Positions 39,977-40,558 of a DNA stretch of 64,000 nt are shown here, piece by piece. The translations under genes and the position numbers were made by a program. Numbering within the stretch: the first letter of the stretch is position 1; each line of letters opens with the position of its first letter. Location: IMG/VR virus record IMGVR_UViG_3300025000_000057; one strand, 5' to 3'. Under the pieces are notes generated by a model. The model saw nothing but the letters and a program-made list of their open reading frames with translations. It did not search any database and was not told the DNA's origin. The stretch is from a virus. Its lineage: Duplodnaviria; Caudoviricetes.

Positions 39977-40558
39977 GGGCTCGACTGGTTTCGATGTGTT
40001 AGAGATGGTAAACTTGCCCGGACAGGTGGCGACTTACGCCAACAATATAAATGCCAAAACACCTTTACAAGCTGCTGCTTAGTCTTAGGACTGAATAGAT
40101 AAACAGCCTCAAAACATCGGAGCAAAACTCAGCTAACCGATTGAGAGTTTAAGAATTGAGTAATCCCCGGGAATGGGGTAGGAAATCTACATTCCTGTGG
40201 CTTCTGTGTAAGCCTACATCGGGCCGGGCCCGTGAATCGAAATGTGTAGAGCAAATCCTCGCAAATGTGAAGAGGTGGGAGGCGACAGTCCTGCGACTCG
40301 TAGAAGTCTAATGCTGCTAGTTCGGCATGAAGCGAAGAATGAAGGGGTATTACTGGTCATACTTGGAGCCGATAAGCTAGACCAGTTGGTGGAGGACCAT
40401 GTCCAGGATAGTTGGCAATTACTATCCACGGTGACCAACAGCCGGGGCGGTTCCGCCGTCCAGGAATGCGGCGAATGACTTACGTAATAAGTCTATTCCG
40501 GGTAGACGGTTAAGAGTAGCTAATACAGACGAGGGTTCGATTCCCTCCGAGTCCACCA
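39977..40558 (+). ncRNA. ssrA: tmRNA (unusually long, 582 nt)
   Basis: 5' GGGCTCGACTGGTTTCGA; acceptor GGGCTCG/CGAGTCC-A-CCA with G3:U70; T arm gaggg-ttcgatt-ccctc; tag frame after ATAAAT: GCC AAA ACA CCT TTA CAA GCT GCT GCT TAG = AKTPLQAAA*. Confidence 0.93.

Follow-up and report, generated by a model that had tools for sequence, protein, structure and literature searches.

The window analysed here, a stretch of 64,000 nucleotides (nt) of DNA from the IMG/VR virus record IMGVR_UViG_3300025000_000057 (Duplodnaviria; Caudoviricetes), carries a complete gene for a one-piece transfer-messenger RNA (tmRNA) of 582 nt. The functional parts of this RNA are intact, its surplus length lies in the ring of pseudoknots and has the G+C content of the tmRNA and not that of the phage, and no known intron is found in it. 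It is an oversize variant of a well-known RNA and, on present evidence, not a new kind of element. With a confidence somewhat better than even, we favour the view that the gene specifies a functional one-piece tmRNA of the phage, the ring of which carries an expansion segment that would be retained in the mature RNA. The evidence for an elaborated ring of this kind consists of its composition, a crude statistic for chains of pseudoknots and the analogy with another phage lineage.

The tmRNA gene and its intact parts

The Rfam model of standard-form tmRNA, RF00023, covers the gene with model positions 1-374 of 374 at 59.2 bits, the gathering score being 47 (E 1e-20; cmscan); the individual features are collected in Table 1. 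The acceptor stem has 7 base pairs (bp; GGGCUCG 39977-83 with CGAGUCC 40548-54), among which G39979 pairs with U40552 to give G3:U70, the alanine identity pair. The discriminator A40555 (A73) is followed by an encoded CCA (40556-58). The T arm (GAGGG/CCCUC, 40531-35/40543-47) bears an unbroken loop, UUCGAUU, and helix 2 is composed of segments of 8 bp (39995-40002/40520-27) and 9 bp (40014-22/40497-505). The resume codon GCC at 40053 is preceded by U and A at positions -5 and -4, like U85 and A86 in E. coli. A preliminary description of this DNA had named an alanyl acceptor, a T arm, helix 2 and the tag AKTPLQAAA, all of which can be read from the sequence and lie within the full-length RF00023 match.

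The RF00023 alignment departs from the canonical arrangement in the pseudoknots (PK). At PK1 it shows no more than a hairpin, at PK2 250 nt stand in place of the interior, and PK3 and PK4 are aligned with many non-canonical pairs.

The DNA of the tmRNA locus is real. The sequence of the region is identical, with zero differences, in contigs from three runs of two independent studies (groundwater and sediment), and a 432-nt contig of the second study reaches from 40074 to 40505, across both ends of the surplus. No allele without the surplus was found among the contigs from these three runs. Assembly graphs branch at 40529-40561, yet one contig carries the entire tmRNA. These last ~30 nt of the RNA, comprising T arm and acceptor, are common to several other members of the community at the level of 31-mers, and the 3′ end (32 nt) is 97% identical to the tRNA-Ala(CGC) of a groundwater Levyibacteriota genome (L005:3293-3324).

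Two other interpretations of the gene were rejected. Models of permuted two-piece tmRNA (RF04321, RF01849-51) gave sub-threshold, partial matches of 21 and 20 bits against 47, which overlap the standard gene, and the gene order is the standard one. A recoding of UAG or UGA that would lengthen the tag is not supported either: the standard code gives 78% coding on the plus strand, and UAG ends 23 of the 76 long open reading frames (ORFs). ARAGORN, run on the whole window, called no tRNA or tmRNA, the gene at 39977-40558 included.

Table 1. Features of the oversize tmRNA gene, its immediate upstream neighbour and long tmRNAs used for comparison. MFE, minimum free energy.
Feature	Coordinates	Strand	Basis
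Complete one-piece (standard-form) tmRNA gene, 582 nt	39977..40558	+	Rfam RF00023 match; single contigs in two studies
tRNA-like domain, 5′ half: acceptor strand GGGCUCG (G3 = 39979), D-loop analogue ACUGGUUUCGA	39977..39994	+	Sequence, cmscan alignment
Helix 2, 5′ strands (UGUGUUAG 39995-40002; UUGCCCGGA 40014-22)	39995..40022	+	Complementary to 40520-27 and 40497-505
PK1 position: hairpin GGCG 40028-31 / CGCC 40037-40, then A/U-rich lead-in to resume codon	40023..40052	+	cmscan alignment, MFE fold
Tag reading frame: GCC resume codon, 9 codons (AKTPLQAAA), stop UAG 40080-82	40053..40082	+	Sequence, cmscan alignment to the model's resume region
Helix 5: 6-bp hairpin UUAGUC/GACUGA holding the stop codon, 40079-84/40089-94	40079..40094	+	Alignment, MFE fold
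Pseudoknot ring, 402 nt; fitted by a heuristic chain of 8 H-type pseudoknot candidates	40095..40496	+	Chain score, G+C
250 nt unaligned by the tmRNA model; local-end insertion at the PK2 position	40115..40364	+	cmscan alignment CCUCAA [250] UUGGAG
Candidate discrete expansion domain, 196 nt (predicted); closing helix AGUAAUCCCC (40159-68) / GGGGUAUUACU (40344-54)	40159..40354	+	Inverted repeat, centroid fold
Three compact H-type pseudoknot candidates (40345-86, 40400-27, 40433-72); possible PK2-PK4 counterparts	40345..40472	+	Heuristic chain
Helix 2, 3′ strands (CUAAUACA 40520-27; UCCGGGUAG 40497-505)	40497..40527	+	Alignment, sequence, MFE fold
T arm, acceptor 3′ strand CGAGUCC (U70 = 40552), A73 and encoded CCA	40531..40558	+	Sequence, cmscan alignment
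G+C-rich hairpin of 9 bp with a UUUU tail, its end 2 nt upstream of the tmRNA	39947..39975	+	Inverted repeat, sequence
Long tmRNAs of Patescibacteria (Candidate Phyla Radiation, CPR)	G129:C2:103099-103601; G037:C77:37972-38459; G062:C33:2813-3288; G010:C1:715768-716240; others (loci L028-L035)

The pseudoknot ring and its surplus

The preliminary description had put this tmRNA at about 200 nt above normal, with an unbroken T loop and the surplus in the pseudoknot ring. Both points are borne out: the gene measures 582 nt, and the RF00023 alignment confines its surplus length to the ring, which runs from helix 5 (the tag hairpin) to the 3′ strand of helix 2 and has 402 nt, as against ~170-200 nt in the ordinary tmRNAs compared. 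A large extra stretch does follow the tag, but its length, measured between the stop codon and the helix 2 3′ strand (40083-40496), is 414 nt and not the ~430 nt first given.

In the helix that the covariance model treats as the outer one of PK2, 250 nt are left unaligned, and PK3 and PK4 are poorly aligned, so that the assignment of PK2 is approximate. Within this unaligned block lies the candidate domain of 196 nt, the predicted closing helix of which (40159-68/40344-54) has 10 bp and one bulge.

In base composition, the 196-nt domain (51% G+C) and the 250-nt block (49%) are close to the ring as a whole (49.5%) and to the remaining tmRNA (49%), with the window standing at 38.9 ± 4%. Among equal-sized segments, only 0.08% reach the G+C content of the domain and 0.3% that of the block. 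The surplus thus resembles tmRNA and not phage, which argues for a maintained RNA structure over drifting filler, and the compositional signal suggests that the added RNA is kept folded.

The fold of the ring was approached with a heuristic of our own, which chains H-type pseudoknot candidates and scores the chain against dinucleotide shuffles (n = 100). The ring obtains a score of 138.5 against 113.7 ± 13.3 in shuffles (z = 2.2), which 2 of the 100 shuffles reach. When applied to twelve known tmRNA rings, the same heuristic gives z values of 0.5-3.5, a range that includes the value of this ring. The clearest candidates, compact and of the classical type, are located at 40163-95, 40345-86 and 40400-27.

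Of the helices listed after the tag in the preliminary description, CUGGUC/GACCAG (40353-58/40380-85) and CGCCG/CGGCG can be read, as can GUUGGU/ACCAAC (40387-92/40435-40), which encloses GGAUAGU/ACUAUCC (40406-12/40421-27). The pairing given as cgggcc/ggcccg, on the other hand, is really a 5-bp stem with a triloop (40220-24/40228-32). The 196-nt domain also contains a near copy of the stop-codon hairpin, AGUC-CUGC-GACU (40287-98), which is complementary to helix 5 at 11 of 13 positions.

Oversize tmRNAs in other lineages

A typical tmRNA has ~350 nt, and the longest one recorded in 2005 had 425 nt (PMC1168896). The tmRNA database of 2025 comprises 97,179 sequences, including 79 from phages, and none of its non-intron forms passed cut-offs of 500 bp in size and 150 bits applied in combination (PMC11915505). 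This collection, the largest curated one, implies that standard-form genes are shorter than ~500 bp. Consistent in size with ordinary tmRNAs, 17 other IMG/VR phage tmRNAs that share the 5′ or 3′ end of the present gene measure 322-388 nt.

The gene at 39977-40558 shares its order of parts with standard one-piece tmRNA (SsrA; RF00023), as well as the alanine acceptor, T arm, helix 2, resume codon, a short tag ending in AA, a stop codon within helix 5 and a ring built from helices and pseudoknots. It differs in its length of 582 nt, in a ring of about twice normal size with 250 nt unaligned, in a hairpin-like PK1 and in being missed by ARAGORN. Intron-form tmRNA genes, which carry a group I intron in the T loop, are similar to it in overall length (545-1116 bp; PMC11915505) and are likewise invisible to ARAGORN; here, by contrast, an intact T loop is combined with a surplus in the ring, and neither a group I signature nor an Rfam match to an intron is present.

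Long tmRNAs occur in Patescibacteria. A match over the cut-off was obtained in 137 of 151 genomes, the full-length tmRNAs among them measuring 314-503 nt. Eight of these have 456-503 nt (Table 1), which places them at or beyond the limit of ~500 bp that standard forms are implied to have; the region of their ring contains long tags or unaligned stretches of 73-141 nt. The long tmRNAs of groundwater Patescibacteria resemble the phage gene in type of habitat and in having their unaligned 73-141-nt blocks after the tag or at PK2, but they are at least 79 nt shorter and differ in the sequence of the tRNA-like domain.

Larger forms were found among phages. A scan of IMG/VR for motifs of the tRNA-like domain, spaced for genes of 540-600 nt, yielded one verified oversize case, a 595-nt tmRNA (L064:4868-5462, plus strand) that recurs identically in L077. 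Its Rfam score is 95 bits, and the alignment leaves out one block each at PK2 (46 nt), PK3 (69 nt) and PK4 (180 nt). A relative of 710 nt is encoded at L125:3344-4053 (minus strand). Between these two RNAs the tRNA-like domain, helix 2 and PK1 are conserved, whereas the ring is hypervariable through large insertions and deletions, among them ~76 nt inserted into a conserved hairpin at its loop. In the tag frame the two RNAs are distinguished by four synonymous substitutions, a single N-to-D change and a 6-nt insertion or deletion that keeps the frame. The tag frame is conserved where the ring is hypervariable, and oversize rings therefore coexist with a translated tag. Both genes are unannotated, and both are missed by ARAGORN. 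As a separate observation, the 595-nt form contains an internal tRNA-like piece, consisting of the stem AACGAGG/CCUCGUU and a T arm GUGGG-UUCAAAU-CCCAC.

The present tmRNA has in common with the L064/L077/L125 forms a standard form of more than 500 nt, a surplus restricted to the ring, a G+C content of ~50% and its absence from ARAGORN calls. The two lineages differ in several respects: there is no similarity outside the tRNA-like domain and no flanking protein is shared with this phage, the largest block of the other lineage is at PK4 (not PK2) and contains the T-arm-like element, and its tag has ~27 codons ending in ALVAA, with the CCA not encoded. Oversize rings are therefore rare but recurrent, and a length of 582 nt is not unique. 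The uniqueness implied by the preliminary description is accordingly weakened by Patescibacteria with up to 503 nt and by a phage lineage with 595 and 710 nt.

Expansion segments and intervening sequences of ribosomal RNA (rRNA) offer a further parallel, being lineage-specific folded blocks that have grown from a surface helix or loop of a conserved functional RNA. The ~76-nt insertion between the 595-nt and 710-nt forms, which lies in a conserved hairpin loop, follows this mode of growth. The RNA concerned is a different one here, and its block may be either kept, like an expansion segment, or excised, like an intervening sequence.

Direct relatives of the tmRNA were sought in several collections. 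BLAST of the tmRNA against INPHARED and PLSDB gave no match. Scans of IMG/VR with its 3′ 26-mer and 5′ 18-mer returned ordinary tmRNAs of 322-388 nt or nothing. A metagenome scan with the 5′ 19-mer produced coincidences in coding sequences plus one unconfirmed tmRNA-like sequence, and a scan of species genomes with the 3′ 26-mer produced two tRNA-Ala genes and no tmRNA. In 401 Patescibacteria genomes, essentially all similarity to the tmRNA DNA falls within the T arm and acceptor end, the exceptions being a few short matches with E values close to the limit.

These findings bear on tmRNA biology and on annotation, and should be of moderate interest to specialists in the two fields, tmRNA and phage annotation. 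The ring can become at least twice as large as normal, perhaps three times, with the tag frame remaining under coding constraint. Natural oversize rings are thus material for asking how much bulk the ring can have during its movement around the head of the 30S subunit in trans-translation. Surveys of huge phages have called tmRNAs with ARAGORN; as this program misses the present gene as well as those of 595 nt and 710 nt, inventories of phage tmRNAs are probably undercounted.

A proposed retained expansion segment and its alternatives

The mechanism that we propose for this tmRNA draws on general knowledge of tmRNAs. RNase P, together with enzymes of 3′ processing, would excise the RNA from a longer transcript, and the alanyl-tRNA synthetase of the host would charge it with alanine via G3:U70. 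Together with host SmpB and EF-Tu, it would then enter the empty A site of stalled ribosomes, where translation would restart at the GCC at 40053, append AKTPLQAAA and terminate at UAG. The extra 200-250 nt (~40115-40364, perhaps as the discrete 196-nt domain 40159-40354) would be retained as an expansion segment, a folded RNA grown from a helix or loop of the ring and pointing away from the ribosome. This surplus would be tolerated because PK2-PK4 are dispensable for the reaction, and it need not carry a function of its own. Judging by its AAA end and the lack of an SspB-type motif, the tag may be a weak target for ClpXP, in which case the phage tmRNA would mainly free ribosomes rather than destroy proteins.

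A number of observations weigh against a functional tmRNA with a folded, retained segment. In the modelled structure, PK1 is apparently reduced to a hairpin, with no second pseudoknot stem evident, and the tag ends in AAA and not in the common LAA. No SmpB gene was found in the 64-kb window when a hidden Markov model built from four SmpB sequences was run against six-frame ORFs, so that the phage would depend on the SmpB of its host or on one encoded elsewhere in its genome. As for the surplus itself, the predicted closing helix 40159-68/40344-54 is rivalled by local hairpins in the full-length MFE fold, the 196-nt domain alone does not reach significance in the pseudoknot-chain heuristic (z 0.9), and the nested MFE of the surplus is no better than that of shuffles (z -0.5, -0.3 and -0.7). 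Since relatives of this tmRNA were not found, none of the ring helices has support from covariation. Finally, the high G+C content of the surplus would equally fit a recent acquisition from a G+C-richer source.

Another reading is that the 196-250-nt block is an autonomous RNA module, either an excised intervening sequence of a new type or a phage-specific functional domain on a tmRNA scaffold, which we consider unlikely. If the block were excised or had a function of its own, a tmRNA would for the first time be seen to carry an intervening or accessory domain outside its T loop.

The second of these forms, in which the tmRNA has acquired a functional module that stays with it after maturation, appears to us quite unlikely. 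It has been proposed here that such a module could act as a docking platform for phage or host proteins, as a sensor or regulator of tmRNA activity or as a decoy, a stable and abundant scaffold thereby carrying a second activity. A G+C content of the domain far above the phage background, a plausible closing helix that bounds 196 nt and the near copy of the stop-codon hairpin at 40287-98 would all fit this proposal. So would a second RNA in the same gene-poor island, at 37769-38049, which has a folded domain of ~220 nt (fold z -2.3): with two oversized tRNA-framed RNAs in one island, the phage would twice have joined large domains to tRNA-like frames, and, if the block is indeed an autonomous module, this RNA would be a parallel case and suggest that attaching large RNA domains to tRNA-like frames is a strategy of the phage. 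The two large domains are, however, dissimilar in sequence (Smith-Waterman score 20, against 23.5 ± 3.8 in shuffles). Furthermore, none of 4227 Rfam families matches the surplus, no homologue and hence no demonstrable conservation was found in the collections searched, the fold energies are unremarkable, and the hypervariable ring blocks of the 595-nt and 710-nt tmRNAs fit tolerated growth better than conserved function. The preliminary description had offered an elaborated pseudoknot ring or an inserted domain with an added function; the former is favoured, and for the latter neither an RNA family nor a second copy has provided positive evidence.

Removal of the surplus from the transcript is, in our estimation, very unlikely. 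It would require an unrecognised type of intron, with ligation, or excision by an RNase without ligation in the manner of rRNA, the latter leaving a two-piece tmRNA joined by helix 2 and ring helices. The size of the RNA speaks for such a process, since a tmRNA of normal size, 386 nt, would remain once 40159-40354 was excised. Several lineages of bacteria have functional two-piece tmRNAs (PMC3985003), and the curators of the 2025 database concede that introns outside the T loop may have been systematically missed and so escaped detection (PMC11915505). Against this, all known tmRNA introns (883 of 883) lie in the T loop (PMC11915505), which is intact here. The preliminary description had allowed for a known intron that is spliced out, but an Rfam search of 40080-40400 (321 nt) with 4227 families at E<=10 returned no Intron_gpI, group II intron, self-cleaving ribozyme or other family; the sole match on the surplus, to a small RNA (sRNA) on the opposite strand at E 1.6, was taken as chance. 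Group I introns have a signature, in that a U precedes the 5′ splice site and the intron ends in G. This signature is absent, as the candidate boundaries follow A40114 (for the block from 40115) or G40158 (for the domain from 40159) and not U, and with the RF00028 core unmatched at the same threshold a group I intron was rejected; a group II intron and a small ribozyme were rejected from the Rfam search as well. Excision by RNase III is disfavoured by the closing helix of only 10 bp, which is too short for a typical site of this enzyme. In addition, the flanks that remain after subtraction of the 250 nt give no canonical PK2, given a mismatch in the outer helix and an order of segments that leaves no loop 3.

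Least probable of all, in our view, is that a small non-autonomous mobile element or other foreign DNA hit the gene and left it as a damaged or neutral relic. An element of this sort would resemble a miniature inverted-repeat transposable element (MITE), with terminal inverted repeats of 10-11 bp (AGTAATCCCC...GGGGTATTACT); these repeats and the size of 196 nt are typical of MITEs, and the G+C content is foreign to the phage. Damage to the gene could also be read from the low Rfam score (59 bits), which reflects poor matches at PK2-PK4, and from the missing SmpB gene. There is, however, no target-site duplication at the 196-nt domain, the flanks of which read ATTG and GGTC. No second copy of the surplus was detected in the window or, by BLAST, in INPHARED phages or PLSDB plasmids, and an exact 18-mer from its left end had no match in IMG/VR; this lack of further copies in the collections searched argues against a mobile element, and a MITE-like insertion is not supported on these grounds. 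Moreover, all elements required for function are intact, including G3:U70, the CCA end and the UA at -5/-4, the sequence is identical in two independent studies, and the ring beyond the 196-nt domain is also unusual and G+C-rich. An internal duplication was likewise dismissed as the origin of the surplus, the only repeats being short (9-17 nt).

Genomic context

To judge from its predicted genes, the window appears to be the part of a large phage genome devoted to replication and nucleotide metabolism. Its ORFs almost all point in the same direction, with ThyX and dCMP deaminase upstream of the tmRNA and a superfamily II helicase, a 5′-3′ exonuclease, an ATP-dependent ligase and a MoxR-VWA pair downstream. 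The helicase is found on a 220-kb contig, the phage being of ~220 kb and from groundwater. A search for related phages with this helicase gave best matches that are at most 44% identical and not syntenic, and a ThyX search for hints of the host recovered only the phage's own protein.

The DNA just ahead of the tmRNA contains no convincing promoter, and no terminator follows the gene. The hairpin at 39947-39975 may be either the terminator of the upstream gene or a 5′ leader removed by RNase P. Its position, with UUUU 2 nt from the tmRNA, and the lack of a terminator downstream indicate that the tmRNA is probably cut out of a longer transcript.

The tmRNA stands at the end of a gene-poor stretch of 2.8 kb, which also carries a 281-nt tRNA-framed RNA and a tRNA-like gene. 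The former, at 37769-38049 (plus strand), is the second oversized tRNA-framed RNA of the island and is situated 2 kb upstream of the tmRNA. It has an acceptor-like stem of 9-10 bp (ACAGAAUAG/CUAUUCUGU) and a T arm GUAAG-UUCGAAU-CUUAC, and the ~220-nt folded domain takes the place of the D and anticodon arms. It has no Rfam or ARAGORN match, and CCA is not encoded.

The tRNA-like gene at 38471-38557 (plus strand) has a 7-bp acceptor stem, a D arm, a T arm, A73 and an encoded CCA (fold z -2.15), with an aberrant anticodon arm in which a 5-bp stem closes an 11-nt loop, CGCCUAGGCUC, containing CUA. It is called a tRNA by neither ARAGORN nor Rfam, and is followed by a 10-bp hairpin at 38571-38598. 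Further along, an intergenic stretch of 125 nt (38666-38790, plus strand) can be closed by a 10-bp helix (UUCAGGGUAG/CUACCCUGAA) around internal hairpins; it has no match in Rfam and a fold z of only -1.5.

Immediately after the tmRNA, 40578-40772 (plus strand) encodes 64 amino acids rich in Cys and His (~9 Cys), with no family match. The adjoining 252 nt (40772-41023) make up most of a small ORF, 40765-41025, with a weak MazG-like match. In a low-depth groundwater contig (run X2), 230 other letters stand in place of these 252 nt, which indicates that a strain variant of the small ORF coexists in the sample.

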